A DNA stretch of 64,000 nucleotides from Fimicolochytrium jonesii (taxonomy: Eukaryota), in assembly GCF_025526975.1 (NCBI RefSeq), contig NW_026515668.1, positions 1,860,001 to 1,924,000 on the forward strand, given 5' to 3'. Below the pieces are notes generated by a model, which made no database searches, was not told where the DNA came from, and worked only from the letters and a program-made list of their open reading frames with translations. A program made the translations under genes and the position numbers. Shown here one piece after another: positions 1 to 54,258 of the stretch (the first letter of the stretch is position 1; each line of letters begins with the position of its first letter).

Positions 1-825
1 AGGCTAAGGGAGGGTCTTATGTCAACGGTGACATCACTATACCCTGGACCCATTCCAAGTCCGCACATCAAGTTTCTCGCCCTTGCACGACGCAACTGCT
101 TGCACGAGTCCCAACGTCCCAACGTGGCACTGCTGCTATTTATTGAACCCTCAGCGACGATCAATCACACTGATGACCGCCATCTATGTATTCAGACTCC
201 TCGGCCAAGCTCAAAGCCAAACTTGAAACCCGTCGTCCTCTCCGACTCCCGGGTCTCTCTTCATGGTAGCAAGTTGACACATGGATGGACACAGGCAAGG
301 CATAATCGAAGCAGCCCGCCACCCGCCGGAGAGCGAAAAAATGATTTAGATAAGCCTGGCAAATTTACCCTCGTACGAGAACACGCTTGTGATTCCGAAA
401 TTGGGGTGTGAGAGAAGTTGATGAAAACGGTGACAAGGGAAAGCGACGCGCACAGGTTGTGCCCATCGTGCGTCGTCGCCAGCCACAAGAATGAAAGCGT
501 GCCTTGCCCGTGTGAACCCCTCTTCAAATGCAAATCGTCCAAGTGTGACATCTCCGAAATTGCGACCCGTTGAACCCGTCGGCTGGCCGTCGGGTTCTAA
601 CGAGATGAGGGCGTTTCTGTATTAGGATCTTCCTCAAGTGATCGGAGAAGTCCTTTTGGGTTTGCCGTCATGTTGTGACCGACTGATGAATTTCCCACTC
701 GGCGCATATAAAAGCGGAGGGGTGGAGGCAACCCGCCAAGTCCCGCCGTTTCCAGATCCAGTCCAGTCTTTTCCACCACTTTTCCCTCCACCTTTTTTTT
801 TTTACATATCTCAACTCAAATCCCA

Positions 826-1852
826 ATGCATCTCAAAGCCAAGTTCATCGCCGTCGTCTCCGTCCTTGCCGCCTCTGGCGTGCTCGCGCAAGACCTGCCC
901 ACCAACAACGTCCTCGAGAACGTGAAGGCATTCAACCAGGAGCAGGATGAAGGACACAACACCTACCACATTTCCACCGTCAACAAATACGTACAGTACA
1001 TCGAGAGCATCCTCGCGGGACCCGGCCCGATCACGTTCTTTGCGCCTTCCGACCACTCCTTCATTCGGTTGCAGCAGAGCAACCCGGATTACCTTAAGGA
1101 GTTTTTGGCGTCGCCCAACCTGATCAATGCCACCCTTCACTGTGAGTTTTGGGAATTCTTCTACGTCTGCCGGAATCGGTGTGGCTTTTCTGTTGACATC
1201 ATTACTGACTTGGCATGTTTATGGATTTTTCAGACCACATCACACACCAGATCTACGACATCGCCACCGCCGGTTTGGGACACACCACTATCCCCACCGA
1301 TCTTTACCCGGGCACCATTGACGCCAACATCATCCCCAACGACCCCGCCAAGAACCCCCCAGGATGGGTCCCTGCCATCTTGCAGGGCAGCGAGAACATC
1401 TCGGCCACCATTGTGCACACCATGAAGTCCTCCAACGGAATCCTTTACGTCATTGTAAGCATGGCGAAGCGTTTTGCTATTGATTGATTGCCGTTGTTTG
1501 CATCGAGCATCCGTCTGACCCTATTTTCTTCTCATTTCAGGACACAATGCTGCGACCGGCGCAGGCGCTGCTGGACAACCCCAGGCCGTTTCCCACTTCC
1601 GCCATCGTCACTTCCACTAGTACCAGAGCTGCTACCACTTCGCCCACCGTCGTATCAACCACCCGTACAGCCACAGTTAGTGGAACCGCAGCTTCCTCAA
1701 CCTCGAACAGCACCTCGGTAGACCCGGCAAAGCCCACTACCGCCACTGGTGCTAGCACCGGCGGCTCCAAGAACGGCGCGTCCTCTAGCACTCTTTCCGT
1801 GATTGCCGCCGCTGGTGCCATCCTTGCTGCGATCTCGGTCGTTGCTCTGTAG
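826..1852 (+). CDS. Fasciclin (FAS1) domain cell-surface protein, probably GPI-anchored
   Basis: Exons 826-1141, 1234-1454 and 1541-1852 with GT-AG introns. Signal peptide, FAS1 motifs (GPITFFAPSD, YHI, SSNGILYVIDTML), S/T-rich stalk and hydrophobic C-terminus. Confidence 0.85.
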
Positions 1853-2584
1853 ACGGCTTACATATACCCACGCTCCTCTCTCCATAGCCTAATGCGGTTT
1901 GCCTTCGTCGCTTAATCACCTTCATGGAATCTGGCATTTCATCCCCTCATTACATAACACTAGTAGATAGAGATATCACCTAACTACCTTGTGATCTAGT
2001 CGTCTTCTATGTTAGTACGATATAGGTCATCCTTAGTAATGTTTACAGTCATCAAAGCAACTGAAAAGAAAGATATTGGTTTCGGAACACATTGCTGGGA
2101 ACTTCATGGGCACTCTGCGTGTGCATAAAATCAATGATCTAGGGGAGCGGGAGCGTGCCTGGGGAATGTTGGATGCTGGCGTTTGGATGGTCATGGTCGC
2201 CCCAGACTCGACAATACTATGACACTGGTTTGCCCAAGTTCGCAGCGTATCTGCGGCTATAACGCACCAGACATCTTCGCTCCCCCTTGATGTGCCGCGA
2301 AGGACAACCGCGCACATGCTGTCGACGCAAAATAATCGCAGCGACTACATCTTACCTCTAGACTACCTTGTATCTTTGAAGCCCTTCCTCGGTTTGCCCT
2401 GGACGCAGACGGCAGAGAGGAGGCTGTCGAAAACCAAGGAGTGACAGTGACGAGCCAAAGCAGAAAGGAAGAATAAACGCGTCACGTGAACGATTCCAGG
2501 AAACCTGATGTCCACCGTCCAGGTCCTTCTTGCTTCCTCCACCACAACCGTCGCTCACGACGACGACAAAGAGAACAACGAGAG

Positions 2585-5500
2585 ATGCCCTGGTTCGCAG
2601 AGACATCAGTCGCTCTCGGCGAGGACGAGCAATGGCACTCGCCCCTGTTCCATGCCTTCCTGGACGACGCACCGCACTCCACAACCGGTCATATCTCAAT
2701 AAGCGAGAGATCACTCAGCGACAATCTCCCCCCGATCGGAGGCGTCGTGCATCTGCCCGAAGTACAACCCCGGTCTGCGATCGTATGGAGACTGCTGGAT
2801 GATAGGAAGGTTTTGGAGATACGACGAATATTCTTGGCGTCTGCGGCAACGAGAGATCAGAATGCGATGGAGGAGGGCACAGTGGGGGACGTGGATGGGC
2901 AGGACGGGACGATCGCGAACGCGCGAAACTCGAATCGGCCGGTATACCTCGAAGCACCGGCGTCGCTGTTAAAGACGCCTAGTATAACTTTGGTTCCATC
3001 GGAAAGCTCCGCGAAATACTCGTTGCACATTGTTCTCGTGACGGAGACCGGCCGATTTTACCGCGCGATATTCCAGGGACCGGATTTCTTCTACGAGAAT
3101 GGATGGAGGAGACGGGAGATCAAGCGTTATCAGATTGTTGCGCTCTCGACACATCGTGGGGACGCTGCAGCGCGTCAAGTGAAGAAGCCACTGATGATGC
3201 AGTGCCCCAGTTTAGAAACTGTCGTTATTGGGTGCGCGAACGGCACGTTGATCAAAGTTACTACACCAGGCGAGCTTGGGGATAGCGATGATGATACTTA
3301 CATGGCGGACGAACCTAGACGGAATGTCTCTGGCTACGAGGAAAGAGAGCTCTTTGAAGCGGGGTATCTCGATAAATTCAAGTCGGCGTTCACACCGAAA
3401 CGGTGGGGATTCTCGCCTTTCAAGGCCTCTCAAACCCCGAGCGCGGCGCCAGAAGTAGATAACCCCCGGCAGCCGATCGCTCTGAACTCGATCGGAAAGT
3501 GGAGCTTTGTCTTATCCCGCGACCGTCAACTCCGCATTTGGAACCTTGAGAAGGGTACGAAATGGAAGACTATCAACCTCGCCGCCGAATGTGCAACCAT
3601 CAAGCCAAAAGTGCTGCGGGTTCCCCGAACGGCGAGCCAGAGCACCACTCTACCCCTTGCCGACTCCACGTCAGGGCACTACATCCAAGTCTTCGACGAG
3701 CAGACGTACGACGTACTACAGGATTTCGAGAGTTCGGGCACCGAATTTAAGCTCGCAATCTACCTGCCGCGCGCCGAAGAATCCGAGGGCTGTTTTGCGC
3801 TCTACGAAGGGAGGATGGATAATTTTGGTGAGCTGCAAGAGCTGGGGTTGTTGGGCATCGAGGATTTGCCTGGAAAGCCGGAACCCAAACAGCCTGAGAG
3901 GAACGAGCCGTTAGACGACGAAGCATCAAAGGATATTACTACCACAGAAGCACTCGTATCTGCAGGGTTGTTGGGTAACGAGCATTTGCACGATCCCAAA
4001 CACCCCGAGCCATTGGACGACGAATCATTGGTCGATTTCATCATTAAGGAAGAGGTGACAGCTGCGGAGGAGACTAGATGGTCGCTTTGGGCCTTGTGGA
4101 ACGCGGCGCCGGGGCCTATAGCTCGATATGCTGAGATACGTCAGACAGGGTCTGCTGTTTATACGTACGCTGGGCCTACGCACTGGAATAATATTACGAA
4201 CGCGGATGGACCAAATCTCATTGGGCCGGTCTTCTATGAGGAGGTGCCTGCCTCGTTTGCAGAAGTCTCGGAAGCGTATCTGGACTTCATCTTCCACTCG
4301 AGATTTGTGACTGAAAAGGCGAAGCGGCGCGCGTTGGAGCAGTATCGAGAGTCTACGGGTGGAGTTTTCCTCGACAGTTCTCTGAACCAGAGCGGCTCGT
4401 CGTTGATCACATTGGAGGACGCAGTCTTATTTGCGGTGAAGCGGGCCTACGAACGTACAATCAAGCCAGCGAGGGGGGCCGAAAAACATGAGGGCCGAAC
4501 CGAGTGGCACAACTACTACAGGATGTGCCTGGAGATGTACGCCCAAGAAAACGCACCAACGGCAATCGACTGCGAAGCGTCCTACGGCTCGCTGATCATA
4601 ACCAAACGTGAGTCACTCTCAGTGGTCCGCGAGTACGACATGTCTCAGATCCTGGTACACTGGCTCGTCAGCCCCCTTGCCACCTCTATAACAATGGTCA
4701 GAACGGAAGATGAGGCGGATTTCTACCAGGAGTTCCGCGGTACGGGCATAGGAGACCACTTTTCGTCGACGTTCCAATCGATCATAGCGCTACTTAAGGA
4801 CGAGATACCCGCATCGAGACTTCTTGAGCTAGACGCTGCTATCCAGGAGATCATGCCTGATATCGGTCCGCATATTTTCGACAAGGACCAGGCGGTTCCG
4901 AAAATGATTGAAAAACTTTTCGAGTTTCCTCTGACGGCTGAGGGGCCTGAAGTGCCCGAAGACTTTGGCGACCGCGGGATGCCTGAGCAGAAACCCGAGG
5001 AGAAGAAGAAGAGATCCGAGAAACAGATCTTCGATGAGTTTGTGAGGTGGTTCAACTTCCTTCCCTCCGACTTCTTGGGCAAACTCCTTGATCTACTCCA
5101 TGGCGTTGATGGAGATCCGGCCGCGTCGAGCACGCTTTCTCAAGTCCCCAACACCAGCGCCTTCACCAACCGATTGCTCGCAAAATCATTCGCCGATGCA
5201 GTCAACTACAAGAAGGAATTGACGCGCGGCGTTTTGCTTGTATCGCTCCTCTCTAAGCATGTAGCGAAGAAAAACCCGGGGTTGCAACGCCATGAGATTT
5301 CGGACCAGATGGTGTCTCGCAGCATACATGCCATGTGTGCGGCGATTGTCGCCAACTGGATCGGCGAAACCACCGTCACGGTCGGCAACACGAGTCCGCC
5401 GGAGCCGCAAACCGATTCGCATAGCATGGATTTCGATCTCGGCCGCTCTCACTTTGGCCAAAGTAGTCAGCGCCATGCTTCCCCCAAGGCCATCACAGGC

Positions 5501-8500
5501 AAGATGCGGAATCTCACTCTCAGCAGGGCGTCAGACGCGCATGAACTCGTTGAGAAGCCTACGATGGTGGAGCCATTAGCCTTCCATTTGATTCAACAGC
5601 ACTATATGCTTGACGTCGATTTCAATGTAGGAGACTACGGCCAACTGCTTCGCGACGCAGTCCCGCGGTTCCTTTCCCGCCTCGGCCTGCTCTCCAAAGA
5701 TTTCACGTTCGCAACAAGCTCGGAACCCATGCTCAAGTTGGTGACCAAGCTGGTCGCGTTCAGACACGCGGAAGCGGCCCGGCAGCTTGTTAATATGCTG
5801 CCGGGAACTCCCGCTGTGAATTATCTGAAAGGCCGCGTATCGGCGGAATTGGGGGATTGGGAAGAGGCAGACACTTGTTTTGCGAAAGCAGTGTTCGGCA
5901 GTTTCGGTATGTCGGACTATGTAAATGGAAACTTTTGTGCCATTGAGGCGCACTAGCTCACTCTGCGGTTGTTCCCAGACAGGACGGAGAACTGGAGAAA
6001 AGATGCGGCCCTAAAGGAAGTCCTGCCTGCGGGAGCGGTTGAAGAAGGCATTGTGGGGGTGTACAAACATTTCATGCATTTATGCCGACGAGGCCACCAC
6101 CGGGGCGTCGTCAAGTACGCGAAGGAGGCGTTGCTGTGTATGAGCGATTTTCCAGAGGTAAGCCTGCAAAATATATTCTCTTGCATCTTGCATTGTCCGA
6201 AAGGTCACTGACGAAAGTGCATTCTCATCCTTCTCCTCAAAGGACCAAACCGAGCAGGTTACTCAGATCTGGAAGGAAATCTTCCGGTCCAGCCTAGAGA
6301 TCCCGGATTATGGGGAAGCACTCGCTGCGGCAGTCAGGAACCCCGACGAGCAGATGTAGGTCAATTGGACAAACCGCTGACGTCTTGATCAGAAGTCAGA
6401 CAGCCTCTGACACTTTTGTTTCCGCAGCAAAATCACATGCGTTCGTCGCCTGATCGGCCGCATGTGCGAGACGGGAGACATCAAAGCTCTATGCGGATTC
6501 AATGTCGGCCGTTTGCAGGACGAGGTCGAGATCGAATTGGCTAACAAAGCTCGCACGACGCCGGTTGAGCAGTGCCTTTCGGGCGGACCGAACTACTATC
6601 AGATTTTCTATAGCTACTGTGTGACTCATGGGGACTTCCGAACAGGTGAGTGTCGGAACGTGATCGTTTTCAGCGCTGCGGACTCCGTGCTTAATTCAAC
6701 ATGATGTAGCCGCGAGTGCTATGTACAGCTACGCGCAAGCGATCAACGCATTGACAAGCCGAATCACCGGAGGAGGAACCGGCGTGAGCTTGTTGACCGC
6801 ACTTCAACAACAGTGCGGGGCTTATTTGGCTGTCCTCAACGCTTTATCGTCTGTTGCGACCGAATATGCCTGGATTGTTGTCCCTGTGAAAGATGACAAA
6901 AGCAAAGTCGTAAGTGCTGAAATTGACTTGGTGACCACTTCCGACATACTTTGACACCAGATTATACAGAGCAAGCGCAGAAAACTGGATATCCCAGGCG
7001 ACGGTAAACAACCCATCAAGCAGCAAAGGATTACAACAAAGGTTCTGCAACCCGACGATGTCCGCAAAGAGTATCTGCTCTGCTTGACCAGGTTGAACCT
7101 GTACAACTCGTCCGCCGCCCTCCATCAGAGAACCATTGTCGGCCTGCCGAGTCCCGAAGATGCCCTCGCGCTCTATGTCGATGCAGGACGCCACGATGAT
7201 GCACTTAGCCTTGGACGTATATTCGAACTCGATCTGACGAAGGTCTTCGAAGCAATGGCCGAAAAGTGTGCGTTCCTCAGCACCCAGCCCCCTGATTTCA
7301 ACACGAACGACAGCATTGGGGAGAGTCTTACGGATGACCCGCGTGTGGATTGGGAAGGCACTTCTGCCGACAGAGCTTGGCGGACGTTGAATGAGTACCT
7401 GTTGGAGCACGACACTCCTCGCACGGGCTATGCTTACAGGTCTGCAGTGATCGACCGCGTGCTGCAAGTTCATCGCTCGTTCCGCATTCCCAAAGCGTGG
7501 ATTACCTCGTTTTACGATACACGGAATCCGGATGATCTGATTCGCGTGTACCTGAAGCATGATTTACTCGAGGAAGCTGCTTATTTCGTCTCCGACTATG
7601 TCAAATGTCAAGAAAAACTCCTGAGGGCACGGAAGACCGCGGGACGACCCTTGGATACTGCAAGCCGGCCGAAGTGGTTGCCTTACTTGCTGATTGATCA
7701 AACGATATACGAGCTGAAGAAACGTGGCTTAACGGAAGTCGCCGAAAACCTCGCAAACGCGGTAGCGAGCTATCTGAGACTGATTACGGGCGAAAGCGAG
7801 GAGGCTCTCGGTACAAAGTCGGCGGCTAAGCGCACAACAAACCTGACTGGCAAGAACGTCAGGTTTGAGCCCGATGTTTCTGAGAGAGTTCCGACCAAGT
7901 CCCAGCTACCGCAAAAGGTATTTCCAACGCAACCGAAGCACCCCCTGACGCAGACGCCGTCACAGCTGTTCTTCGAACAGCCGACGGAAGCAGCAAAGCC
8001 TTCGGCACAGCAAACTGCTACTCAACCGAAAAAGGCACCTTTGGCCTTTGGAAGCCCACCGACTTCAATCGATGACCTCGATACGACGACGGTGCCAATG
8101 GACACATCGGAAGCAGCCGACTCATCGCCACCCGCGGCGCCTAGATTCTCGTTCGGCCCGCAGGCATCAAAGGCAACGCCCGCCTTCCCAACGACAAAAC
8201 CCGCGCCGTTTGCATTTGGGTCAGGCCCGAGTGCCTCCGCACCATTCGCACCAACGAGCAGCTTCGCCCCATCTTCCCAAGCCCCACCTGCGCCATCAGC
8301 TCTGATGCCAGCCGCACCTTCATTCGGCTCAGCATTTGGATTAACTGCCGCCCCTGGCCAAGAGACTCGGAAAGCTCCCCCACCATCACAGATTACGGAT
8401 GTTGAGACAGGCGAACAGCTACCCCAATCGCCCGTGCCGGCGAAGAGACAGAAGAAAGTCGGCGTGCCCACCTTTGGATCAGCCTCATCCCTCGCAACGG

Positions 8501-11500
8501 ACAGTGGCTTCACCCGTGCACCAACTTCGTCGCAAACCCCGGCGTCGTTTCCAACCAGTACTTTCGGTTCGAGCCCGGCCCCTTTGTTCGGTAGTAGTGC
8601 CAGTGTGTCAGCACAGCAATCAATAGCACCTGCAATCGGTACACCACAACCCTTCGCATTTAGCACCGGCGTTCCTTCGGTGACCGCTGTCCCTGACAAG
8701 CCGAAAGCACCTGCAGCATTTTCCCTGGCTAATTTCGGAGCCAGTCAACCGCCTTCCGCGTTCGGCGCCTCGAAGAGTGCTGACCCACCAAAACTTACAC
8801 AGCCACCCATCTTCGGGGGCGTCTCTAGCTCGGAGCCCGCCGTTACCAAAACAGCTACTGCCCCGCCACCCACTTTCGGAGCTGCGTTTGGATCCAACTC
8901 CGCCTCGAGTGGAGGTTTCAGTTTTACACCTGCTGCTTCGCAACCGGCCAAGGCCTCTGCGTCGACGTCAACCGCTGGGTTTGGTTCATCGCCGGCACTG
9001 TTCGGTGCTTCCGCTGCGGCACCGGCATCTCCGTTCGGCGCGGCTCAGTTCGGCGTATTCAAGCCCGCTGACGACACTGCCAGACCGGCCGTCTCGGCGG
9101 CTCCTGTAGCGTTTAGTTCATCGCCAGCAGTGTTCGGCGGTGGGAAGCTCGCGGAGACCGCAAATGGGTCCATCAAGACTTCACCTGCGGCGTTTACATC
9201 TACGTTTGGCACGGCTCAATTCGGCGGAATCAAGCTGGCAGACAATACGGTAAACACTTCCGTCTCGGCGCCTCTTGGGTTTGGTTCGACGCCTGCACTA
9301 TTTGGTGCTGCGACGCCCGCAGCGACGGCGCAAGATCCTTTTATGACTTCACGTGCGGCATCTACGTCGACGTTGGGTACGCCTCAGGTCGGTGGATTCA
9401 GACCTGCAGAGCCAACTTTCGGGGCAGTTCAGGGTTTCGGTGGATTCAACCTCCCAGGGCCAGCACGTCAAACTGCTTTTGGGGTTCAGGCCTCCGGTGC
9501 GTTCACACCCGCAGAACCAGTGGATGAATCTTCCAAGAATCCCGGGTCAGCAGATGAATCGGCGTCGGCGCCTTCATTGTTCGGATCGGCTCAACCTTTC
9601 CGCGGTTTCAAAATACCTCAATCAATAGATCAGTCGGCCAACACCCCGACGTCAGCGCTTTCATTGTTTGGTTCTCCTCAGACTCTCGGCAGTCTCAAGC
9701 CTCCGCAGTCAGCAGATGCGCCGGCCAAGAGCTTGAACCCGGCGCCGCCATTGTTTGGGACTGACCAGACTTCCGGCGGTTTCAAACCTCCACAGACAAC
9801 GGAAGAACCACCCAAAGCTTTGGTTTCAACGCTCGGAACGACTCAGGCTTCCGGCGGTTTCAAGCCTCTGCAGGCAGCTGAAGAAGCAATCAAACCGTTC
9901 ATTCCAGCGTCCGCAGCGGCTCAGATATTCGGGTTCAAGCCACCGCAAGCAGCAGAGGATCCAGCCAAACCGTCCCTTCCAGCGTTTGGCGCCGGCCAAA
10001 CTTCTGAAGCCTTCAAGCCCGCAGAAGCAGGAGAAGAGCGACCCAAAACCTCTATTCCAGCGTTCGGTCCCTTTGGGGGGTCCAAGCCGGCAACGTCGGT
10101 AGAGGAGCTGTCCGAAAGCTCTACTTCGACCTTCGGCTCTTTTGGAGGGTCCAAGCCGGCAGCGTCGGCAGGGGACTTTTCCAAAACCGCTGCTTCAACC
10201 TTCGGCTCGTTTGGAGGATATACGCCTGCAGCGTCAGGAGAAGGGCAGCCCAAACCCTCTCTTCCAGCCTTTGGATCTCAAGGATCTAAACCGGCAGCGG
10301 TTGAGGAGCAGTCCAAAATCCCTGCCCCAGCGTCTGGCACGTCTCAGGTTTTCGGTGGATTCAAGCCCATCCCGGACTTCTCGGCGAGAATTGTTCCAAC
10401 ATCCAGTTTTGGCGGCGTCCAGGTCGGTTCCACCGACTCCGCCGTGCCGAGTTCCCCACCAACAGAGACGAGGGCTGAGATGCATGACGATGAGGGGGAT
10501 TCGGAGACCGCCACATCTGACCCAGTAGCAAGGTCCACCCCCTTCGGCGCTGGTAACTCTGGCCTTGCACAGCCTTCCGGAATGTTTTTCGAGCCCCAGT
10601 CGGAAGAGCAAAGCGTCCCTGAACCAGCAGCGCCCAACTCAGCTCCACCGCCTAGGTTTGGGACCTCCACTGGTGCACCTTCCACATCAGCGCAATCTTT
10701 CGGAGCTGAGAATTCTGCGTCGAAAAATGATGTTTCTGAATCATTAAGGACCGTTATGACGCCTGCAGGCGTTTCGGAAAAGGCTTTAGCAGAGGAAGCT
10801 CCTGGTAGCGATATCTCCGCGCCTGCGAGCTTCACTGCTCCACTGGAGACGATGGCTCCACCTACCGGTTTCCAATTCAAGGTCCCGCATCCTGCGTCGC
10901 GCCCCTCTGGCATCGCATCAGCCGCGCCCATATCCGTTGCATTTGCTGGATTTGGGAACCAAACGGTCACACCAGCAACGTCGCAGACCGCGGCTTCAAA
11001 TGCCCCCGGTGCATTCAGTGGGTTCGGGAGTGGATCAACGGTTGCCCCGGCTTCCACGGGGCAGGTGTCGTATTCGCCAAAGTTTCCAGCGGCAACTCCG
11101 AGCTCCACAGGCTCAGGGGTTGGCTTTGGTGTTTCTAGCCAAACGCAGCCGTCGAGCTCAGCGCCGATTGCTATCTCCAGCTCGTTCAAACCAGCAGAGA
11201 CAATTTCCGGATTTGAAGCAGCCGCGCCCTCCACGTCCAAGAGTGAAGAGTCACTAGAAGACGAGGACGAATACGAAGACCCCCCAATCCCGGTCTCGTC
11301 CGCATCACCCACGAAAGGTAATGCTTTGCTCTTTACGAAGCCATTAGGGTTTGGCACGGGGTTCACGTTCGCTCCAGCGCCCATCCCCTCACCTCCGAAC
11401 CCATGCTCATCCGCCGCCTCATACTTAGCCACGCCGGCGTCGTCTTCTACCCCAAGAACATCAACCACATCGGTTTCGGGCGTAACGACGAGCACTCCGC

Positions 11501-12321
11501 TTGCAGAGGCGGGGACACACCCGGCTTCGATGGGATTCGCGCCGCTGTCGCATGCGTCGACGGTTTCGGCTTTTGCGAGTGCGTCGGACCCGGAGCTGAA
11601 CAGAAACTCTCCCAGGCCCATCAAGGTTACGAAGGGATTCCAGGCGGCTGCGTTGCCGGGGACGGCGAGTCCGCTGGCTTCACGTGATGGGTTTGGAGAT
11701 GCGTCGGAGGCGCCTGTCGAACCTACCCCTTCTGCGACGGCACCTGCGTTTTCATTCGGGTTTGGGTCCGGAATCGGGGCCGGGCCGGCTGATTCCCAGG
11801 CGCATACCGCGCATGCAGCGTCAACCCCTTCATTCGGGTTCGCAGCCCCGCAACCTAAAGCAGCAAGCAGCCCCCCACAGTTCACGTTCGGAATGTCCCC
11901 TGCTGCCGCCACGCCGAAGGCGGGAACAAGCTCAGGCTTCAGTTTCGGATCGACACCCCTCGGGTCAACGCCTACCAGCACCACTTCGCAAGAAGCAGCG
12001 TTCGGTACCACCGTCCCCCCGCCCAAATTCTCTTTCGCGCCAACGAACAACCCGGCTGCGTCGTCCACTCCGTTCACATTCACGCCCTCGACGAGCGCGG
12101 CATCGAGCAGCACGCCGCTCACGTTCAATTTCGCTAAACCGGTCACCGCTACGGAGGAGGATGACAATACCGCGTCGACTTCGGCTTGCCCACCAGCCCC
12201 GGTCCCCGCGTCCCCGCCACGGTATGCAGACCATGCGGATGCGGAGAGCGAGGAGGTGTTTGTGCCTGTGACGAGGGGCAAGAGGGGGAAGAGGAAGAGT
12301 GCTAGCCCGGTTAAGGAATGA
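2585..12321 (+). CDS. NUP160: Nucleoporin Nup160/Nup120 with a very long C-terminal FG-repeat extension
   Basis: Exons 2585-5906, 5979-6157, 6243-6355, 6428-6645, 6710-6909 and 6961-12321 keep frame. Nup160-like motifs LSRDRQLRIWNL, NYYQIFYSY..HGDFRTAASAMY and WLPYLLIDQ, followed by ~1,450 aa of FG/FSFG repeats. Confidence 0.85.
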
Positions 12322-12931
12322 ATGTGTGCGTCATTGTATGGGGCAATCTATGCGGGGGATGATGCATGATTTGTATATTTACGAAGGGAATGGTTGGATT
12401 GCAAATAAATCTAATGGTGCTCATAATCCTCAATGAAGTGGGATGCCCCACTGTGTATCCTATTCGGCTGTTTGGTACCGCTTCATGGGTTCCAAGAGTG
12501 ATTGAGAAGGATGCCAGAGCGATGATGCATGATTCTACCATGGCGGGGGCTACCATGTCGTTGAGTGAGAGATGAAGGGCGACCAGGTCCCAAGCAAACA
12601 AACTAGCACTGTGGACTTGATGGGTATATGATTGGCGAGACCGATAAAGGATCTGTAGCCGTTGATCTTATCGGTGGGTTTCGTTTCAAACGAATGGTCG
12701 ATGCACCGTAGGCGAGCACGCGATGAGCCGAATGTGTGGCAACCGTAGGTGGTATCGATGTCCTTTGACATCCCGAAGAGAGAAACGGGAGGGCTGAACA
12801 GCCGTTGCCCAGTCCACCATATCGATGTCGAGGCCGGTCCGGTTTGATGACGGCGGATTTCAGAATTGCGATGCAGGGAGGATGCAGGTGAGGTGGCGGT
12901 AACCAGGAGCAGCAGAGATGTGGCCAGGTGT

Positions 12932-13647
12932 TTATCCTTCGCGCCACTGTTCAGCGCAATTGCAGCACTACATGAGGAAGAAAGCAGGATGTTGAGATGA
13001 CGGCTTCGTGGCTGAAAGGCTCCTTCCACATCCAAAATTTCCCTTGCGACCAGTCTCCCGTTCCATCGAATTTAGCCTCGTTGCCAGCAAATTCCTATTC
13101 CTTTCCAATCGAAGCCGCTTAAAAGGTCAGGTGGAGGCCATTACCTTGAAGAAAATGGACATGGGCTCATCGGCAGATCGAATCTGGAGTTGCATGAAGT
13201 AGGCGCGGTTGTGGTCGCATTTCGGGCAGCGGGCTGGGCGGAGAAAAAAAAAGACCCCCAAAGTCAACAATCACAACGTTCTCACCACTGCGGGGCTTGA
13301 TGCTGCTTGGGTGTTGCGGACATAGGTTTCCATAGTCCATCGAAAAGAAATGGTGGCCCTCACCTTCTGTTGCATCGACGTTCTCCCAAGCCGCGGAACC
13401 GCCCAGCACGTCGTCCACTTGTTTTCGTTTGTACGTCGTTCGACTTGTAATGGGCTTTATACAAAGTGGTAATACAAAAGTGAGCCAGTGTATCTCAGGG
13501 TCCTCCAAAACTTCGCCTTTGGTTATTCCGCTCCCTTGCCTTTCTTATCTTGCAGACGTATGGACATGTTTGGCACACGAATTGGTTATGACCCGACTCG
13601 CCCTGGGCGATGAGTAGCATATTTGCACAGCTTGGACAGAAGTACAT
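12932..13647 (-). CDS. RPC11: RNA polymerase III subunit C11 (POLR3K)
   Basis: Spliced product MYFCPSCANML..FVCQTCPY..VDDVLGG..CPKCDHNRAYFMQLQIRSADEPMSIFFKCCNCAEQWREG, with the TFIIS-like QIRSADEP zinc ribbon. Confidence 0.95.
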
Positions 13648-13992
13648 TGTGGCTTGTTGTGACGAGAGTAAATGAGAGCTGACGGACCGTGGACCTTTCG
13701 TGGGGTGAGGCTCAGGCTCCTGTGTATACTTTGCCTTCAAATCTTTCAAATTGCACTGCGAGCCTATACGACGAACCGGTTGTGACGAAAAAAAGAGGAC
13801 TGCGCTTCGAAACTTTCGAAAAGTCGTCCGGAAGCCACGCGCCAAAAGCATCTACGGGCATCGGCCACCGCCCACAGTGATCTAGGACCTACTGCAGACA
13901 AAGACAGCACGTACGCTCCAGGAAGGCGCTGTGTCCCAGATACTTCCTTGCGAGGTCCATTTCACGCTTCCAGGAGAGAACGGCTTCCTGCA

Positions 13993-15388
13993 ATGGGCGC
14001 ATCACGCGCGAAAGCCGGCAACATTTCTCACGTCAGAACCGTCCAGAAAGGTACCGACACCCCAGCGACGCCCAACCGAGGCTCGAAGCCACGAAAGCGT
14101 CAAGTCGTGCGAAAGAAGTCGTTCACACGAGGGGAGGGAGAGGAAGAAGAATCGCTTGTGAAAGTAGCAAAGAAGATGGTGAAAACACTCCACTTCAACG
14201 AGTTACTCCCGTGGCAGCAGGTGGGTTGGGTCATATGTACCTCGCCTTTCTGCTAGCCCGCGTCTAAGATACAGACGAAACCAGGACGACTACTACATTC
14301 ACACAGGCTACCGGCCACTCCAAGATTCCTACATCGGCTGCATCCGCACGCTCTCCTACATCCATAACGAGACCGGCAACATCTTCTCCCACAAACTCGG
14401 TGCGTTGCTGTTCGCTGCCGCCTTCTACTTCACCTTCACATACAATATTCTTGGGGAGACGGTGAAAGTCGCTCGGTGGGGCGATTATGCGGCGTTTGGC
14501 GTGTTCCTACTGTCGGCCGTGGTGTGTTTCAGTCTGTCGGCCTGGTTTCATACGGTGATTTGCCATAGTCAGAGAGTGTGCATATTGTTCAACAAGATTG
14601 ATTATTTCGGGATTGTGGTGTTGATCTGGTATGCGTATGCGACCTGCTTGATTGCGCTGCTTGTAAGAAGTCACCCTAATCATAGAGTCGAACCCCTTTC
14701 ACAGTGGATCAACGTACCCAAGCCTCTACTGGGGGTTCTCCTGCCACCCCCACTTTCGAGTAGTCTACTGCACAATGACGACGATCTTTGGTGGCATGAC
14801 AGTACGTCAAAGCGCAACAACAAAGTCTCCCTCTCTCGACGCAGTGGGGCTTACAGGCCTCTATCGCACCAGATGTACACGTCGCTGGCATCCCGGTTCA
14901 GCACGCCAAATCATCGCGATATTCGGACCGCGAGCTTTGTCGGTCTCGGGCTGTCCGGGCTGATTCCCTTGTTACACGGATTCTATTTGCATGGGGTATG
15001 TACGGTGCCCTAGCTCCCATGTGTGTGAATAAAATTCTGAGTTTCAATCTTCCCGTAGATAGCGACATCAATCGAAGCCGTTTCATTCTGGCATCTGATG
15101 GGAATGGCAGCATTCTATATCGTCGGGGCTATAGTGTACACGCTTCGAGTACCCGAACGGATATTTCCGGGTCGTTTTGACATTTGGGTTTGTTTGCATC
15201 TTTCGCACATAGGTTTCAATTTCACACTCGTGTTCGTTTGACTGACTTGGCTTGGTCTCTACTCAATGAAGGGCCACTCACACCAAATCTTCCACGTCCT
15301 TGTTCTCGGAGGGGCGATCACGCACTATCTGGGACTGGTCAAATCGTGTCGATATTGGCGCGAGGGGACACCCCCTTGCCAGCTTTGA
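13993..15388 (+). CDS. PAQR/adiponectin-receptor-like (IZH, haemolysin-III family) membrane protein
   Basis: Multi-exon. Motifs HNETGNIFSH, SAWFHTVICHS, KIDYFGI, RVPERIFPGRFDIWGHSHQIFH. Confidence 0.9.
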
Positions 15389-15654
15389 TGACAGCCGGAG
15401 AAACGGCTGCCGCACACAGGCATGCGGCAAAGGCAGCGGTCGGGCAGGCAGGCAGGCAGGAACCTGATGTGCCAACTCATACCATACTTTTGGACTGGTA
15501 CCTCTATTAGTGAACATGACTAGACTTGAGCTGGTCTTTCGTAGTATTATGCATGACTATAATTGAATCACGCTACACCCTGCGGTAGTTCTACTTCTAA
15601 GTTCTAACACAACCGTAACCTATGCATGAATCGAACGCGCTCGCACTCCATCAC

Positions 15655-17029
15655 CTACTCCTCCTCCCCATCCTCTCCCTCCTCCCACTCCTCCACCCCC
15701 GTCACAACCCTCCCCAACCTCCCCACCACCCTACCCGCCGCCCAAGCCCCCCCAAAACTCATATCATACCAATAGTTCACCGCAACCACCGCGCGGAACC
15801 TGTCGAGCCCTTCCTCCTCTTGCAAAACCTGGTGGTACCACAGTGAGGGGAGGTAGAGGGTTTCGCCGGCGTGAACAGTGACGATTAGGGGGCGGCAGTG
15901 CTGGGTGTAGAGGGGGTGGTCGGTGGGGGAGGGGTGCAGGGGGTTGACGGGGATCCAGGGCGTTGATGTTTGGGGGGAGGTGGGAAGGATGGTCCAGGTT
16001 GGGGGTTCGGTGAAGGAGGTTCGGGTGGGATGGTATGTGGCAGTTGGGAAGAGGCGTTCTGCGAGGGAGGGAGAGATAATTGAGATGTGCTACCATCACT
16101 ACTGAGCGATAGATGTGTCGCACTTACCATAGAGACAGAACTGCTCCTGCGGTGGAATACTTGAAAGCAAGTGCAAGATAAGTAAGTTCCGATTCCGCAC
16201 ATCTCATACTCAACGGCAGCCATCCCAGTTCTCACAGTATAAAAGTCTTCGTCCCGGCCACAACGACATAAAGATTCTCATAGTGATCCTTATGCAGCGC
16301 CGTAACCGATTTCCTCCCACCCATCCAGAAATTCACGGCATCGGGCGGTTTCCCGAACGCGTCGGACGCCCAGGTGATATCGGGGGGTATATCCTCCAAC
16401 AGCTCGGTGAATTCGTCGTGCATGTTGTTATTTTGGGATTGGCAGTAGTAGGTTGGGGGGGCGGGGTCACCCGACCGCCATTGGGAGGAGTCCATCTCTT
16501 CTTCGGCGGAGAGGGTGGTTGCTGATTTTGGGGGGAAGTGAGAGAGGAGGTCTGCAAAAGAGAGTTTTTGTTCATGGGGGAGGACGAAGTGGCCTTCTAC
16601 GACTGCATCGGCGAGTCTAGGGTATGCTTTCCGTGAGATAGATTACAATCTGGGGAAGGGAGGGGAACATGGAAAGCTTACCCGTTGGGCGTAACGGCGA
16701 CCGTCACAGGCTTCGTGACCTTCTGCTCCAGATACATCTTCGATCGCCACCGCTCCATCGCCGGCCAGCTGTCCGCCACATCTACAATATCCTCCAATCA
16801 GTTCATCCAGTCCATCTGCCCTTCCGTCCGTGCTCTAACCCCTCTAACCCCTCTTTCAGCACTCACGCTCGATAACGACGGGAAAGTTATCCCTCACCAG
16901 CCTGCTGAACTCGAGAGCGGTGGGCGGGGCAGGCAGACGTGATACATGCGAACTGCGGAAGGTTCGGGCTTCGCGGGCCTGGGAAATCAGAACGTCCAGG
17001 ATGGTTTGGGATGTGACCTCTGGAAGCAT
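15655..17029 (-). CDS. JMJD7: JmjC (cupin-like 8) hydroxylase, JMJD7-like
   Basis: PTALEFSRLVRDNFPVVI, AVTPNG-LADA, YCQSQNNN, PDAVNFWMG..TALHKDHYENLY, LYLPSLWYHQV, VAVNYWYDM. Confidence 0.9.
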
Positions 17030-17254
17030 TGTGGATGTTTGGCGGAGAGGTTGGGCGGGGCTGCTGAAAAGGTGGAAGGTCAGTTCCCAATGCTGTCCCA
17101 ATGCCAAACAACTTCCGGACAAAACAACCTGAGGCCCCCATCGCACACTTCGACCTGCAGTCCATTCGCACAACTCAGGAACGGACTCCATCAGCACAGC
17201 AGAGGGGCCCACAAACACAGACACTCACCTTCACCAGGAACGCTTCCACCAGAA

Positions 17255-19560
17255 TGTCGGCCTTCCCCACCAACAAACCATCGCCACAACCAGCCTCAAC
17301 GAGGACGACACCATCCGCTCAACAAACGACGACGCTTCCATCTCTCCGACCTCGCGTACAATAGGTTATAAGCCCTGCTTGCGAAGCCGAATAGATCTAA
17401 GGTTTAGTTTCGTACAAAGAAATAGTAGTAGTAGTGGAACCATCGCCACGGGTGCCCCATCGGCGGCCCCGTCGGCACCCGATCTCGCAGATCCCTCACT
17501 CGATCCCTCACTCGATCCCGCACAGCAGATCACACTGCAGAAGCGCACACGGCGCGCACGGCACGCAGAGCCGCAGAGGAATACAAGGAGATCAGAAACC
17601 GGGGGAGACATCGGAGGGAGCAGAAGAAAGGATGGGGCGGTACGAAGAAAGGCTTGTCACGCTGGAGAAGGCCACTCTCACGCTGGAGAAGGCTAGGGAA
17701 GATCACAGAAGGTTCATGGAAGATCAAAAAAGGATGCTGGAAGTCATCATGAGGCAAATTGCACGGCTCCAAACCGCAGAGGAGAAGGAAGCGGACGGAA
17801 TTCTGGAGAAGGAAATCGTCGTACCGAGAAAGAAATTATGCCCACGCCCATCGCTCCTTGCAGGCTGTGCGGCATCACCGGGCACTGGACCAGAGCCTGT
17901 CCTGAACTCGAAGCTGCGAAAACATACTTGAGAAGCGGAACACCAACGAAGAAAAAAGAAGCCGAAGCGAACCTCGTCCTCGGTACCCCCCGCAACGAAG
18001 ACCATAGTATCGCGCTCAACCCGCGCACCTTCAAAGCCGATGCCGAACGACACTGCGAAACGAAGATCAAAGAACCTCGCTGCGATAACGGAGGAAACGG
18101 AATCGCCGAAAGGTTGAACCGCACGATAGCAAATCAAAGCTCGCACCACCATACAGCACACCGGGAACGTACCCAACCTCCGCAACGAAATAGCGTTCAC
18201 GGACTACCTGCGTCAGCGCACACCGAGTGCTGCTACGAACGAAGCGCCGTACCGAGAATGGCTGCGCAGCGCACACCGAGTGCCGCTCCGAACGAGACGC
18301 CTTACCAACGAAAATGCATGGAGGAGAAGCCGATATCTCGAATCAACTGTGGTGCGAAGCCTACCTACAAATCCCGTCATGTTACCTTCAACGAAACGAT
18401 CGAAATCTTCGAATCCCGCGATATGACCTTCAACGCAGCGCATTATCGAAGCGCAATTACTACCGACGTAGACGTTGAACATATCGAAAAGAAAATCCTG
18501 CTTTCGCGCGGCGCTCAAGGCGACCTGCTCGGCGATGGGGTTTTGGGGGAGAACGAGGAAGAAAGAGCGCACGTTCGAAGCGCAACTACCGATGACAAGG
18601 ACGGCGAAATCGTACTACCGGCTATCAACGCAGACACGTCCGAGATCCTCAACGCAGCGCAAGTTCGAGGCGCACCTACCTACCGGCTATCCAACGAAGA
18701 AACGATCGAAATCTTCTCATCTCGCGATGCGGCTATCAACGAAGCGCACGCTAGAAGCGCAGAGAAGAACCACGAACGAAGCTCGGCACCTACCGGCTAG
18801 TCAACGAAGCGCTAACAGTAATGTGGTTGAACCACGAGTCGAACACCAGATGCACGTCATGGGGTATGCGAAGACGCTGCATTCGTCCATCAACTATCCT
18901 GCGAGAGTGTCTCTGCGCACCAACTACTGAAGACAACGACGCCGACGAAGATGGCGAAATCGTACTACCGGCTATCCACGAAGAAACGTTCGGGACCGAC
19001 GAAGAAAAAGCGCAGGTTCGAAGCGCACCTACTGACGACAACGAGGGAAGGTAAAGCGCACGTTCGAAGCGCACCTACCGACGACGACGCCGACGACGAT
19101 GGCGAATACAATATCGAAAAGATCCTTCTCTCGCGCTCGAGACGACTCGCACGGCGACGGGGATCGGGGGAAGAAAAAGGAAGAAAAAGACACGAAAAAG
19201 GGTTATCGTCGCCCCCGTACACGACGCAGGAGAGCGTACAACATACGCACGCGAATGGCACGCGAAGCGCGCAAGAAATGAAACACAACATCGGGCACGA
19301 AACGGTCGACTCGAAATACGACATCCCGTACCTTCCGAAGCCCGCGCTTGCCCATCTACGGTCGCTACAAGGGATACATCCCCCCGAAAACGAAACTCCG
19401 TGAGAGAAACGTTGTATATGCACGAAAGAAGAAGAAGAAGCGCAGATCTGAAGAAAAAAGGAGGAGAAGCGCAAATCTGAAGGAAAAAGGTGGCACGAAG
19501 CCGAGCGCCGGAAAAGGGAGCGATGTTGGTCAAGTGAAAAATGTTGACTTCACCCCTACG
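17255..19560 (+). mobile_element. Decayed, internally deleted Ty1/copia LTR retrotransposon
   Basis: Copia-type PBS-like sequence ACA-ATAGGTTATAAGCCC at ~17358-17375. Coiled-coil gag-like ORF; zinc knuckle CRLCGITGHWTRAC; integrase fragments RCDNGG/NGIAERLNRTI and SRHVTFNE; RNase H-end-like LAHLRSLQGI; purine tract GGAAAAGGGAGCGA followed by TG at ~19510-19525. Boundaries are approximate. Confidence 0.8.
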
Positions 19561-19570
19561 CTGTCGGAGG

Positions 19571-19700
19571 TACAGTCAGTTATCAAAAAGCTGTGCACCC
19601 CCCTGAAATAAATCAGCGACTGCCGTAACGCCAAATTCACGTGAGGACCGACATTGATTTCAATTAGAGGGGGTGCACAGCTTTTTGCTAACTGACTGTA
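19571..19700. mobile_element. Tc1/mariner-type MITE (TA target-site duplication, ~31-bp TIRs)
   Basis: Left end TA-CAGTCAGTTATCAAAAAGCTGTGCACCCCC; reverse complement of right end TA-CAGTCAGTTAGCAAAAAGCTGTGCACCCCC (1 mismatch). No coding capacity. Confidence 0.9.
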
Positions 19701-31061: not shown

Positions 31062-32621
31062 ACTCGCCTGAATTGGGGTTCTGAATGTGGGTGTCCGCCT
31101 CACCGATACTCTTCACGCTCGTGGGTGTCACCTTCCGGCGACCCTCCCTTGTTGAACATACACCCCACCTGGCCCCTATCTATCTATCACCACACCTTGC
31201 ATAGACAGTATAGACTTATCACCACGGACTTCCATCAGTCGTATCTATCATATGTATTGCAGCATCCATTCTATCACTTATTTCCTGCTTCTTTATACAC
31301 ATCATCATTATGCTATCTTTACCATGTGTCGGACGATGCTATCGGAATAATCAATGGGAGGTCCATTTGTCGTGCGCGAGCTTTACATGCCTCTCTCGTC
31401 TTACCGGCCACTGCTGCAAGGCCTCACTTGACCAAGGCGGTGACATCCGAGGAAGACGCGTCCCCTTTTCAGAGACGGAGATGCATTGCATTAACATACC
31501 AAAGCACATCACCCATCTAGTTTCCGAACATAGATGACAGGACCAAGTTCGTTCGGCTATTGCCGTGCTTCAAGCGGGATGCAGCATCGTGCTGAGCACA
31601 TGGGCTCAAAGTATCGGCATCCCGCCGGGGCGGCCCATCCCCGCTCTTTATGGACTGCGGACGGGCATACGACTCGGCCTGGGCAGGCAAGCGGGTCTTC
31701 AAACATGGCCCCCGAAACAAGCCGAAGCGTGGCGACTGCAGCGACACGGACGTCCTCGATGCTATGGGCAAGACCCCGGGAGGCAACGAAGGCCGAGGAA
31801 GTCGGTTTTATCTTTCTCTCCCAAACGTTCTCGGAATCGAATCCACTTTCGTTTGAGCGGATGTGGCGCAGTCTGAGCAAATGACGCGCACTTTTCGACA
31901 GCGCGTTGCAGAGTTTGGATCATTCCGTGGTTGGTTTCAGTGCCCCGCGTTTCAGAAGCCCCCCCCCGCGCCGCACACGCAGAGCTATTAAACACCCCCC
32001 TTTGACCTCGATCGCAGAGTCCAATGGAAAACGAGCCCTGTGGGCAGAGGAAACACAGGGGATGCAAAGGTGGGCAAAAATGGGGTCGTTGAGGACAGCG
32101 CGGATGCCGGGAGGGGGTGGGGGCGTTTCAGTTCAGAGGGACGAGCGACCAGTCACGGACGAAAAGAAGCTGGGTAATAAGAGGAAAAAAGCCGGCGGTA
32201 ATTATTACGGGTGGGGAATAATACAGTATGATGAGGAGAGTCCCCCCTTGCGCTTGCTCACAGATCAAACGTGTTGCAGGTTTCCGTGACATATTACTAC
32301 CGGGATTCCCATTCCATCTGTATTGCATTTGAGGCCGTAACTGTCCCGCCGCCCTGTGCCTCTTTTGCTTATCGCATCGTATATAACCGCCACGGCCCCA
32401 CGCAACTCCCCACCCCCTCGCCGCCCTCGAACGCCACCCTCCCTCTTCGCATCATTCCCTTTCTTCTTTCTAAAGGAATCTCATTCTCTTTGTAATAAGA
32501 GGACCTTCGACCTTTGGTTTCCTTCGCCGACGACGACGACGAACGAACGACGAACGACCGCGCGCATACAAGCGGACACAAACACTACTCTCGCTTTCCT
32601 TTCTATAGACTTTAGACAAAA

Positions 32622-33569
32622 ATGGTCAAGCTCGCCCTTATCGTGACCTTCGCTGCGCTGTGCGCTACCGGTGTGTTTGCAGACCCACAGAATGGCCGCC
32701 AACGAGGTGGGCTTGCCCGTGGTGGTGCTGCACGACAACAGCAGGCCGCTGCCGCTCGTGGTGGTGCCGCTCGTGGTGGTGCAGCTGCTGCTGGTGGGGG
32801 TCAACGTGGCGCCGCCGGTCGTGCTGCCGCCGCCGCTCGGGCGAAAGCAGCAGCAGCTGCCGCAGCCAAGGGCCAGGGCAAGAACAACAACGCCGGCAAT
32901 GCAGGAGCGGGAGCAGCTGCGCCTGCTGCTGGGGCTGGGGCCGCCGCCCCCCCTGCTGCCAAACCCGAACCCGCGACCCGCATCACCGAAGTCCCCATCA
33001 CCCAATTCGCCACGGCCCCCTTCTGCGGCGCATCCAACCTGACCCCCTCCGACGGCACACAGATCCGCACGGGCGCCTGCTCCTCCACCGCGCTCGGCGC
33101 CATCCCGGACGTTTCAAAGATGGTCAGCACCATCATCACCTCCCCCGCCAACCTGGCCGTCATCGACGCGACAAAGGACACCCTCGTCGCCGTCGACATG
33201 CTCAACCTCGACACGGGTTTCTTCGCCGACCCCAACAAGCATTACAACCAGCAGCCGCAGACGCTCAACCGCAACGGGATCACACAAGGTCACCAGCACA
33301 TCTCCGTGCAGCCCTTGGTCTCGGGCACGGCCGCGCCGGACCCGACCAAGTTCGCGTTCTTCAAGGGCTTGAACGACGAGTCCAAGAACGGAAAGACATT
33401 GACGGTCACGATCCCCGCGGGAACGTTCAAGACCAACGGCGTGCATCGGATGTGCTCCATGTCTGGAACAGACGCACACCAGCCGCCCATTATGCCCGTC
33501 ACCCAGCGTGGCCCGCAGGACGACTGTATCCGTGTCACGGTGCAGAACGCTGGTGGGGCCGCCGCCTAA
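32622..33569 (+). CDS. Secreted fungal protein with Ala/Gly/Arg-rich N-terminal region and a Cys/His-containing globular domain
   Basis: Intronless 315-aa ORF. Signal peptide, AARGG repeats, GTQIRTGACS, GHQHISVQ, FAFFKGLND, QRGPQDDC. Confidence 0.8.
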   Translation: MVKLALIVTFAALCATGVFADPQNGRQRGGLARGGAARQQQAAAARGGAARGGAAAAGGGQRGAAGRAAAAARAKAAAAAAAKGQGKNNNAGNAGAGAAAPAAGAGAAAPPAAKPEPATRITEVPITQFATAPFCGASNLTPSDGTQIRTGACSSTALGAIPDVSKMVSTIITSPANLAVIDATKDTLVAVDMLNLDTGFFADPNKHYNQQPQTLNRNGITQGHQHISVQPLVSGTAAPDPTKFAFFKGLNDESKNGKTLTVTIPAGTFKTNGVHRMCSMSGTDAHQPPIMPVTQRGPQDDCIRVTVQNAGGAAA

Positions 33570-53637: not shown

Positions 53638-54258
53638 CTAATCCCCCTTCTTCAACGGGATGATGGAATCCCCATCGCCATACAGCAGCCTCTGCGGCAA
53701 CTGCTCAAACTCCACAGACCCCCTATCCCCGTTCAACTTGACCACCCACGTCACATCAAACCGCTTCTTATCCCATACCGGCACCAGCTCCTCCTTGACC
53801 CCCAATGCTTTCACAATATCGCTCATCATCTGATGACACCACGACACCAGTACCGTCCTGCCCTCATACTCCCCCCCACCGCCGCCCAACAATTTCCCAA
53901 CCATCTCCTTCACCAGCGCCTTCCGGTACGTCACAAACGGCACCACACCTTTTATTCCCTCACTCTCCGCAAACGGCAGCACAGTCTCCTTCGGCCGCTC
54001 CGACTTGCCAAACCCGTCGATATCGTCCACGGCCTGTGCGATGATCCCGCCCCACGGCCGCTCGGCGACCAGAGAGGTGATTTCGGAACGGCGGTGGAAA
54101 TAGGGCACGAGGGCTTGCGCGCGCTCGTAGCCTTTTGTGGAGAGGATGTGGTTGTCAATGTAGGCGGCTTTGATGTCGGAGGAGGGTTTGAGGCCGGAGT
54201 GCCACGGCAGCTTCTCGGCGTGGCGGATGAGGAGGATGGTTGTGTTGGGGAGAGGCAT
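53638..54258 (-). CDS. Histidine phosphatase (phosphoglycerate mutase-like) superfamily protein
   Basis: Intronless. LLIRHAEK, LSTKGYERA, RPKETV, VSWCH, QRLLYGD. Confidence 0.85.
   Translation of the reverse strand: MPLPNTTILLIRHAEKLPWHSGLKPSSDIKAAYIDNHILSTKGYERAQALVPYFHRRSEITSLVAERPWGGIIAQAVDDIDGFGKSERPKETVLPFAESEGIKGVVPFVTYRKALVKEMVGKLLGGGGGEYEGRTVLVSWCHQMMSDIVKALGVKEELVPVWDKKRFDVTWVVKLNGDRGSVEFEQLPQRLLYGDGDSIIPLKKGD

Follow-up and report, generated by a model that had tools for sequence, protein, structure and literature searches.

A Nup160 gene of the chytrid Fimicolochytrium jonesii whose last exon runs in frame into a long FG-rich tail

In a 64,000-nucleotide (nt) stretch of the Fimicolochytrium jonesii genome (contig NW_026515668.1, positions 1,860,001 to 1,924,000 of the forward strand; hereafter the window), we analysed a gene for the scaffold nucleoporin Nup160 whose last exon continues into a long tail rich in phenylalanine-glycine (FG) dipeptides. 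Splice signals give a six-exon model from 2585 to 12321 on the plus strand, encoding 3,130 amino acids (aa), with five introns of 51-85 nt, all of them GT-AG (Table 1). The predicted start, MPWFAETS, is similar to the starts of chytrid orthologues, to which the protein is 35-43% identical; for exon 1 and the Nup160 of Powellomyces the figure is 35% over 1,088 columns. Exon 6 begins after a 51-nt intron (GTAAGT...CAG) and lies in a plus-strand frame that is free of stops from 6955 to 12321, or 1,788 aa from stop to stop. The public gene model at this locus looks broken, and the long protein appears to have been missed by the annotation. In the protein collection, window 7255-7707 is represented by an identical piece of 151 aa (P0003), which ends where the DNA has neither a stop nor a donor, and exact look-up of nine open reading frame (ORF) variants from the window found none of them in the collection.

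Table 1. Features of the Nup160 locus and its neighbours, in window coordinates.
Feature	Position	Strand	Remarks
Fasciclin-like gene	upstream of Nup160, within 712-17224		Pfam
Exon 1 of Nup160	2585-5906	+	aa 1-1107; beta-propeller and start of helical solenoid; PF11715 E 8e-35, PF23300 E 2e-9
Exon 2 (predicted)	5979-6157	+	flanked by GT-AG introns (72 and 85 nt) that preserve the frame; no Pfam match of its own
Exon 3 (predicted)	6243-6355	+	splice model; PF23300 positions 121-154 and PF23354 positions 124-158, both below cut-off
Exon 4 (predicted)	6428-6645	+	PF23354 E 4e-11, positions 163-226
Exon 5 (predicted)	6710-6909	+	splice model; no Pfam match of its own
Exon 6	6961-12321	+	Nup160 C-terminal TPR and entire tail; single open frame, 1,786 aa, 5.36 kb
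Nup160 C-terminal TPR domain	7054-7830	+	PF23347 E 2e-28; exon 6 residues 32-283; includes WLPYLLIDQ and last helix
Linker free of FG	7831-8046	+	predicted disordered, pLDDT 45-55; carries KNVRF and VPTKS
FG region	8047-12006	+	aa 1707-3026, about 1,320 aa; 53 FG at a median spacing of 20 aa; GLFG absent; P/S/T/A-rich
PAKRQKK, putative basic motif like a nuclear localization signal	8437-8457	+	[KR][KR]x[KR]: 2 found, 0.26 expected
Decayed in-frame tandem array	8976-10364	+	(G)GFKP units of 23-29 codons, 69-87 nt; 60-85% DNA identity
Low-charge FxF-rich segment	11629-12155	+	8 of 15 FxF motifs
Basic RGKRGKRKS near C-terminus	12274-12300	+	followed by ASPVKE (SPVK site) and stop; six residues from end
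Candidate polyadenylation signal AATAAA	12404-12409	+	sole AATAAA within 7600-12700; 83 nt past final stop
RNA polymerase zinc-ribbon subunit	about 13170-13700	-	Pfam; downstream
HlyIII/PAQR membrane protein	14183-15180		Pfam; downstream
Cupin_8 gene	downstream, within 712-17224	-	Pfam

The gene is a full Nup160. Its Pfam domains are complete and in order: exon 1 encodes the propeller and the beginning of the HEAT region, exons 3-4 encode the middle TPR, and exon 6 encodes the C-terminal TPR. The N-terminal Nup120/160 beta-propeller (PF11715) scored 120.8 bits against a cut-off of 30, and the helical solenoid with its middle and C-terminal TPR was recovered at 38 (PF23300), 43 (PF23354) and 100 bits (PF23347). 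The aligned loop in the region of the ALPS motif of the propeller is present, but its moment was only 0.22 in an 18-residue scan that allowed one proline. AlphaFold, run on the translation of 6961-8200 with 71 sequences, gave confident helices up to exon 6 residue 282 and a weaker helix to residue 290, followed by a predicted local distance difference test (pLDDT) of 45-59 and no secondary structure. An earlier reading of the letters alone (the sequence-only reading) had taken WLPYLLIDQ, at about 7675-7700, as the C-terminal motif of a normal Nup160. The motif is indeed there (7675-7701, beginning at aa 1583 of the model), but the fold extends one high-confidence helix further, to about 7806-7830, this conserved last helix (7732-7806, exon 6 residues 258-282) having blocks of pLDDT 90-98. 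All nine Foldseek matches at E of at most 0.001 were chains in structures of the pore (from Xenopus, human, Dictyostelium and Arabidopsis), led for the C-terminal TPR by Xenopus and human chains (E 4e-10), and by entry, chain and length they are largely the Nup160 chains found by sequence search. Taken together, the confident helices and the structure matches indicate that the scaffold is complete and that the tail begins at about 7831, with order predicted to end at about 7830.

From position 7800 to the stop, the protein has 53 FG in 1,506 aa, against four in its first 1,624 aa, and 2,000 shuffles gave a mean of 10.0 and a maximum of 22. Alanine, serine, proline, threonine and glycine make up 63% of these residues. 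The sequence-only reading, with dozens of FG, FSFG and FGGFKP motifs over about 1,450 aa, overstated the last two: the FG motifs span about 1,320 aa, and FSFG occurs three times, GGFKP three times and exact FGGFKP once. By class, there are 6 FxFG, 11 SxFG, 12 PxFG, 0 GLFG and 24 others. Segment I of the tail (aa 1701-2190) has 25 FG, low charge and the PAKRQKK motif; segment II (aa 2191-2500) has 14 FG and higher charge; segment III (aa 2501-2900) has seven FG and acidic patches; and segment IV (aa 2901-3075), with seven FG and low charge, holds eight of the 15 FxF motifs of the tail and is followed by an acidic and then a basic end. The basic RGKRGKRKS end is as the sequence-only reading described it; the last 25 aa contain seven lysines or arginines, and no R-x-R-[RK], the motif of a basic importin-binding end.

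The whole tail of about 1,500 aa is predicted to be disordered, its first 120 or so residues from low pLDDT with no helix or strand and the remainder from composition. Its best amphipathic moment was 0.39, against 0.43 +/- 0.04 in 100 shuffles. No Pfam domain was found in it, including the autoprotease domain and the propeller, and motif scans found no CxxC pair or zinc finger, no GRP AT-hook core and no HF[ST], the autoprotease motif. A linker of 76 aa opens the tail. In it, KNVRF (7852-7866) is similar to RVxF and at chance level (one observed, 0.6 expected), and VPTKS (7888-7902) is a weak look-alike of a C-terminal motif of relatives, VP[ST]NSLFA, where VP[ST]xS has a post hoc p of about 0.01 and the alignment is not significant. 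Codon usage in head and tail correlates at 0.45, within the 0.26-0.52 of controls. A phmmer search found no homologue of the tail of 822-2,617 aa among 7,984 candidates, and the whole tail found nothing in the PDB at E 10; the last 200 aa matched an Nsp1 FSFG peptide at E 0.16, the sole PDB peptide match. In the Atlas, rank 2 for the tail was a 1,076-aa cluster named NUP1 with a score of 0.86; at low recognition a score below 0.9 counts as no more than a lead, and no Nup1 match came from the C-terminal 230 aa. On the minus strand beneath the end of the tail there is a frame of 667 codons (10344-12347), probably a shadow of the biased coding strand.

In-frame tandem duplication enlarged the middle of the tail. 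This part carries about 15 degenerate G-G-F-K-P units, and all 30 of the spacings tested, in nine repeat families, are multiples of three, which argues that this part of the tail arose through old duplications that kept the frame. Conservation by codon position is 0.65/0.77/0.64, the second position being best kept (positions 1 and 2 against 3, p 0.055). We discarded an estimate of synonymous and nonsynonymous differences (pS/pN 0.61/0.43) as biased, the anchors having been picked on the protein motif and two of 17 lying off-register; the comparison by codon position, which is free of this bias, is borderline.

For comparison, we assembled 92 homologues of at least 1,000 aa, 90 of them from the best 150 of 347 matches (cluster representatives and predicted proteins) and two from another search. 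Their tails have a median length of 12.5 aa and reach at most 225 aa. In a FastTree phylogeny of 25 C-terminal regions (523 columns), the Fimicolochytrium gene is sister to Powellomyces and Geranomyces with a support of 0.998, and Spizellomyces comes next, which places it in a chytrid of the Spizellomycetales. In Powellomyces as in Geranomyces, Nup160 closes with VP[ST]NSLFA soon after the last helix, and the shared motif suggests that these are true ends. Since the closest relatives found have no FG tail, the tail is lineage-specific. Among the matches the gene itself is represented by no more than the 151-aa piece, so annotation could hide other long tails. No homologue of exon 1 with a length of 1,939-5,000 aa was found among 5,948 candidates, which is weak evidence. 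A metagenome scan gave at least one locus, 41% identical (L001), whose contig ends inside the TPR domain and is therefore uninformative on the tail.

At least three FG are found in the tails of four of the 92 homologues, all of them Chytridiales, and with one fragment added, short FG tails occur on the Nup160s of Siphonaria, Obelidium, Physocladia and two Chytriomyces. These tails are 134-214 aa long and have 3-6 FG, or 2-4 per 100 aa (shuffle p 0.001-0.03 in four and 0.10 in one). Like the long tail they are C-terminal, of low complexity and FG-bearing, with a basic end in three of five; they differ in being shorter, in motifs resembling S-I-L-x-R-L-G-P that the long tail does not have, and in their separate branch of the tree. 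Rhizoclosmatium, which is nested within the FG-tailed clade, has a 73-aa tail with no FG. We found no paper that describes these short tails.

One or two of the S-I-L-x-R-L-G-P-like motifs follow the last helix in Chytridiales Nup160s and in that of Cladochytrium tenue (P0016, P0021, P0039, P0056, P0018, P0160, P0022 and P0013), and they look like a conserved linear motif. In five of these proteins a short FG tail comes next; FGxGPGLSPDGPK and a basic end are common to three. Some predicted Nup160s are joined to unrelated domains: an N-terminal DCUN1 in two Chytridiales (P0018 and P0021), a cofilin at the C-terminus of the Dispira protein (P0134), and a C-terminus on a Synchytrium model (P0154) that we take to be CFAP20-like. 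These are probably merged neighbouring genes. A merge of gene models was rejected for the Fimicolochytrium gene, in which, unlike these cases, the junction lies inside one exon. Another lineage with a long Nup160 is Dictyostelium (PDB 9hcj chain R0; 1,791 aa), where the profile matches only part of the chain, and a CcmE-like domain is reported in that protein (PMC3983603).

We infer from the DNA that neither an intron nor a stop separates Nup160 from the tail, as the sequence-only reading held: both lie in the one frame, and there is no strong donor between them. The donor consensus is GTRAGT, which the five donors of the gene match at five or six of six positions, and from 7269 to 8602 none scores so high. 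Two weak donors follow the last helix, at 7858 and 7918, and only in-frame introns are possible from them. A periodic coding model trained on the scaffold part of the gene gave 0.12, 0.075 and 0.044 in the Nup160 frame across 7700-7999, against -0.12 in the 3' flank, and an open stretch of 102 codons appears in about 1% of non-coding simulations. The first FG, at 8047, lies upstream of the first in-frame methionine, at 8098, as does an FF motif, and this counts against a separate gene starting there. A hypothetical protein from Met 8098 would have no Pfam domain, a single run of at least 18 residues free of proline and glycine, and no amphipathic helix above shuffles, hence no detected anchor.

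On this basis we lean, at somewhat better than even chances, toward one uncleaved 3,130-aa protein in which the last exon of an intact chytrid Nup160 runs in frame into the FG tail, making it a Y-complex subunit that would carry a peripheral FG domain of its own. A single mRNA and a single uncleaved product are what we infer; the exit point of the tail, its binding partners and its placement in the pore follow in the same conditional sense. The Nup160 part would join the Y-complex as usual, and the disordered FG domain would hang from the outer ring. FG regions of the non-GLFG, P/S/T-rich class act in peripheral docking and not in the central barrier, and the tail would likewise bind transport receptors as a peripheral docking domain; its basic motifs may bind importins. 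The FG domain would sit on any ring that contains Nup160, the default being both; with one Nup160 for both rings it would face both sides of the pore. The C-terminal domain of Nup160/Nup120 forms the Nup120-Nup85-Nup145C junction of the Y-complex, near which the tail would leave the complex. That junction is described in PMC11392808.

The weakest step of this explanation is the origin of the tail. Most likely it grew at the C-terminus of Nup160, much as the short FG tails arose independently in Chytridiales. The sequence-only reading had proposed a lineage-specific fusion that tethers an FG domain to the outer ring. Lineage specificity stands and tethering is the best functional reading; as to fusion, the short tails of Chytridiales suggest that growth in place is no less likely than the joining of two genes.

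Several observations weigh against a single protein that grew in this way. The searches for homologues gave no second genome with a long FG tail, and in eight alignments of Chytridiales tails to the long tail none scored above the best of 100 shuffles and one equalled it. The collection matches included no fused or tail-only protein model, P0003 being the only piece of exon 6. The selection signal on the repeats is weak. At the junction, the coding score is tied with another frame at 7900-7999 and falls to -0.02 at 8000-8099; with an ancestral end near 7910, there are 45-62 open codons to explain, for which the chance is 0.06-0.12; homopolymer runs are found (AAAA at 7913, CCCCC at 7941); and a single-base indel within 7790-7950 would give a Nup160 with a stop at aa 1633-1672, of normal length. 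An alternative is two adjacent genes, a normal Nup160 and an FG protein from Met 8098, which only a wrong base in the assembly or a very recent stop loss has joined. One indel would leave Nup160 at normal length, 32 codons of aa 1620-1723 are one change away from a stop, VPTKS at 7888 resembles the end of the relatives, and the missing long-tailed relative and the absence of the long protein from the public annotation also agree with it. Yet two nucleoporin-like genes would then have to fit within 150-300 nt of each other, where the gaps flanking the gene are at least 700 nt; FF and FG precede Met 8098, the junction has no AATAAA, and no anchor was detected for the separate protein. A tail-less spliced mRNA, which would have the same outcome, needs a frame-shifting intron, and these are available only from donors matching at four of six positions, at 7674 or 7724, where conserved helices would be lost, or at 8220. 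Either form, we judge, is quite unlikely.

The origin of the tail could also lie in the capture of a gene for a basket FG nucleoporin of the Nup1/Nup153 type, with Nup160 replacing its N-terminal anchor and the tail serving as a terminal docking site on the nuclear side, which we regard as doubtful. Nup1, Nup153 and Nup60 share with the tail a long, unfolded, P/S/T-rich FG region with late FxF motifs and a basic C-terminus, and they dock on the Y-complex. The family is poorly conserved (PMC13242641). The pore-targeting site of Nup153 binds the Nup160 complex (PMC2150853), which keeps a fusion alive, and that protein has targeting in its N-terminus and XFXFG repeats in its C-terminus (PMC2120979); yeast Nup60 docks on Nup85 of the Y-complex (PMC11392808). 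The end of the tail has both the FxF-rich segment and the basic stretch, and the NUP1-named cluster and the Nsp1 peptide, as leads only, point in the same direction. However, FxFG, the dominant repeat of Nup1/Nup153, accounts for just six of the 53 FG, against 23 SxFG and PxFG; neither the amphipathic helix nor the RanBP2-type zinc fingers are present, although a fusion could have dropped the helix; and no alignable homologue came from phmmer, Pfam or the PDB, with the Atlas score below 0.9 and the C-terminal 230 aa giving no Nup1 match. The sequence-only reading had named FxFG repeats with a basic C-terminus as typical of basket nucleoporins such as Nup1/Nup153; the tail lacks the FxFG majority. 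SxFG and PxFG, the commonest classes of the tail, are assigned to nucleoporins of the Nup159/Nup214 type, from which the tail differs in having no propeller of its own and no C-terminal coiled coil (no Pfam match; one stretch of at least 18 residues free of proline and glycine).

Still less would we credit, as very improbable, a product that is cut after synthesis like Nup98-Nup96, or a tail with a mainly non-transport role as a scaffold for condensates or phosphatase or in chromatin contact through its basic end. The known gene that combines an FG part with a Y subunit is Nup98-96/Nup145 (PMC4758718), and an RVxF-like motif lies just past the last helix, with a basic stretch at the end. Against this, the tail differs from precursors of that type in having no autoprotease domain (Pfam), no GLFG and no HF[ST], the RVxF is at chance level, and the AT-hook core GRP was not found. 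An ELYS-like reading, based on RVxF and an AT-hook, was rejected on these same last two grounds.

The single Nup160-FG protein that we favour has the architecture of Nup160/Nup120, the short arm of the Y-complex, with the same order of beta-propeller, middle and C-terminal TPR and the same structure matches; it is twice as long, with about 1,500 extra C-terminal residues and 53 FG. In function it would most resemble Nup158 of Trypanosoma brucei (TbNup158), the uncleaved Nup98-96/Nup145, a single FG/solenoid protein built into the outer ring whose FG domain is permanently on a solenoid subunit of the Y-complex and hence on both rings (PMC4758718). There, the subunit is of the Nup96 type, the link is ancestral with cleavage lost, and the FG part is N-terminal, as in Nup98-96; in Fimicolochytrium the FG part is on the C-terminus of Nup160, has no GLFG and would have been gained within one chytrid lineage. 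In Table 1 of a survey of composite Y-nucleoporins, Nup160 is given with RAD51 and with CcmE and not with FG repeats (PMC3983603), and no case of Nup160 with FG repeats was met in passages of PMC6371224 and PMC13242641. Nor is a Nup160-FG protein described in the titles and opening lines of abstracts of the open-access literature that we searched (on Nup160-FG, on chytrid pores and more broadly). That a Y-complex subunit can carry a fixed FG domain is thus known; the open frame described here is unusual, seen in a single genome, and has a parallel on a smaller scale in another order of chytrids.

Yeast and animals encode the scaffold of the outer ring and the peripheral FG proteins in separate genes, and the joining of these proteins by short motifs lets the two faces of the pore differ. 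A Nup160 with its own FG domain of 1,500 residues would be a natural tethering experiment, in which one FG domain is fixed both in number and in its point of attachment. If the Y-complex is identical on both faces, the FG domain would be symmetric, as in trypanosomes, but within fungi. Together with the short tails of Chytridiales, it points to a route from scaffold nucleoporin to FG nucleoporin. It is conceivable, if improbable, that an FG domain was hard-wired to the C-terminus of Nup160 more than once in chytrids, briefly in Chytridiales and massively here, and that the tail replaced a free basket FG nucleoporin, so that the peripheral FG layer would be fixed one-to-one to the Y-complex and nuclear/cytoplasmic asymmetry lost or re-created.

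Among the ORFs listed for the window there is no second FG-type frame. The stretch 17400-19600, A-rich and with broken frames, encodes a zinc knuckle of the CCHC type (PF13696, E 2e-4) and looks like the remains of a decayed retrotransposon. At 32616-33569, a single frame of 317 aa with no Pfam match encodes a possibly secreted protein, in which a hydrophobic N-terminus is followed by a linker rich in G/A/R/Q and a C-terminal part with cysteine. On the minus strand, a frame at 53638-54411 with no Pfam match at E 0.01 carries the motif LLIRHAEK, which is reminiscent of histidine phosphatases.

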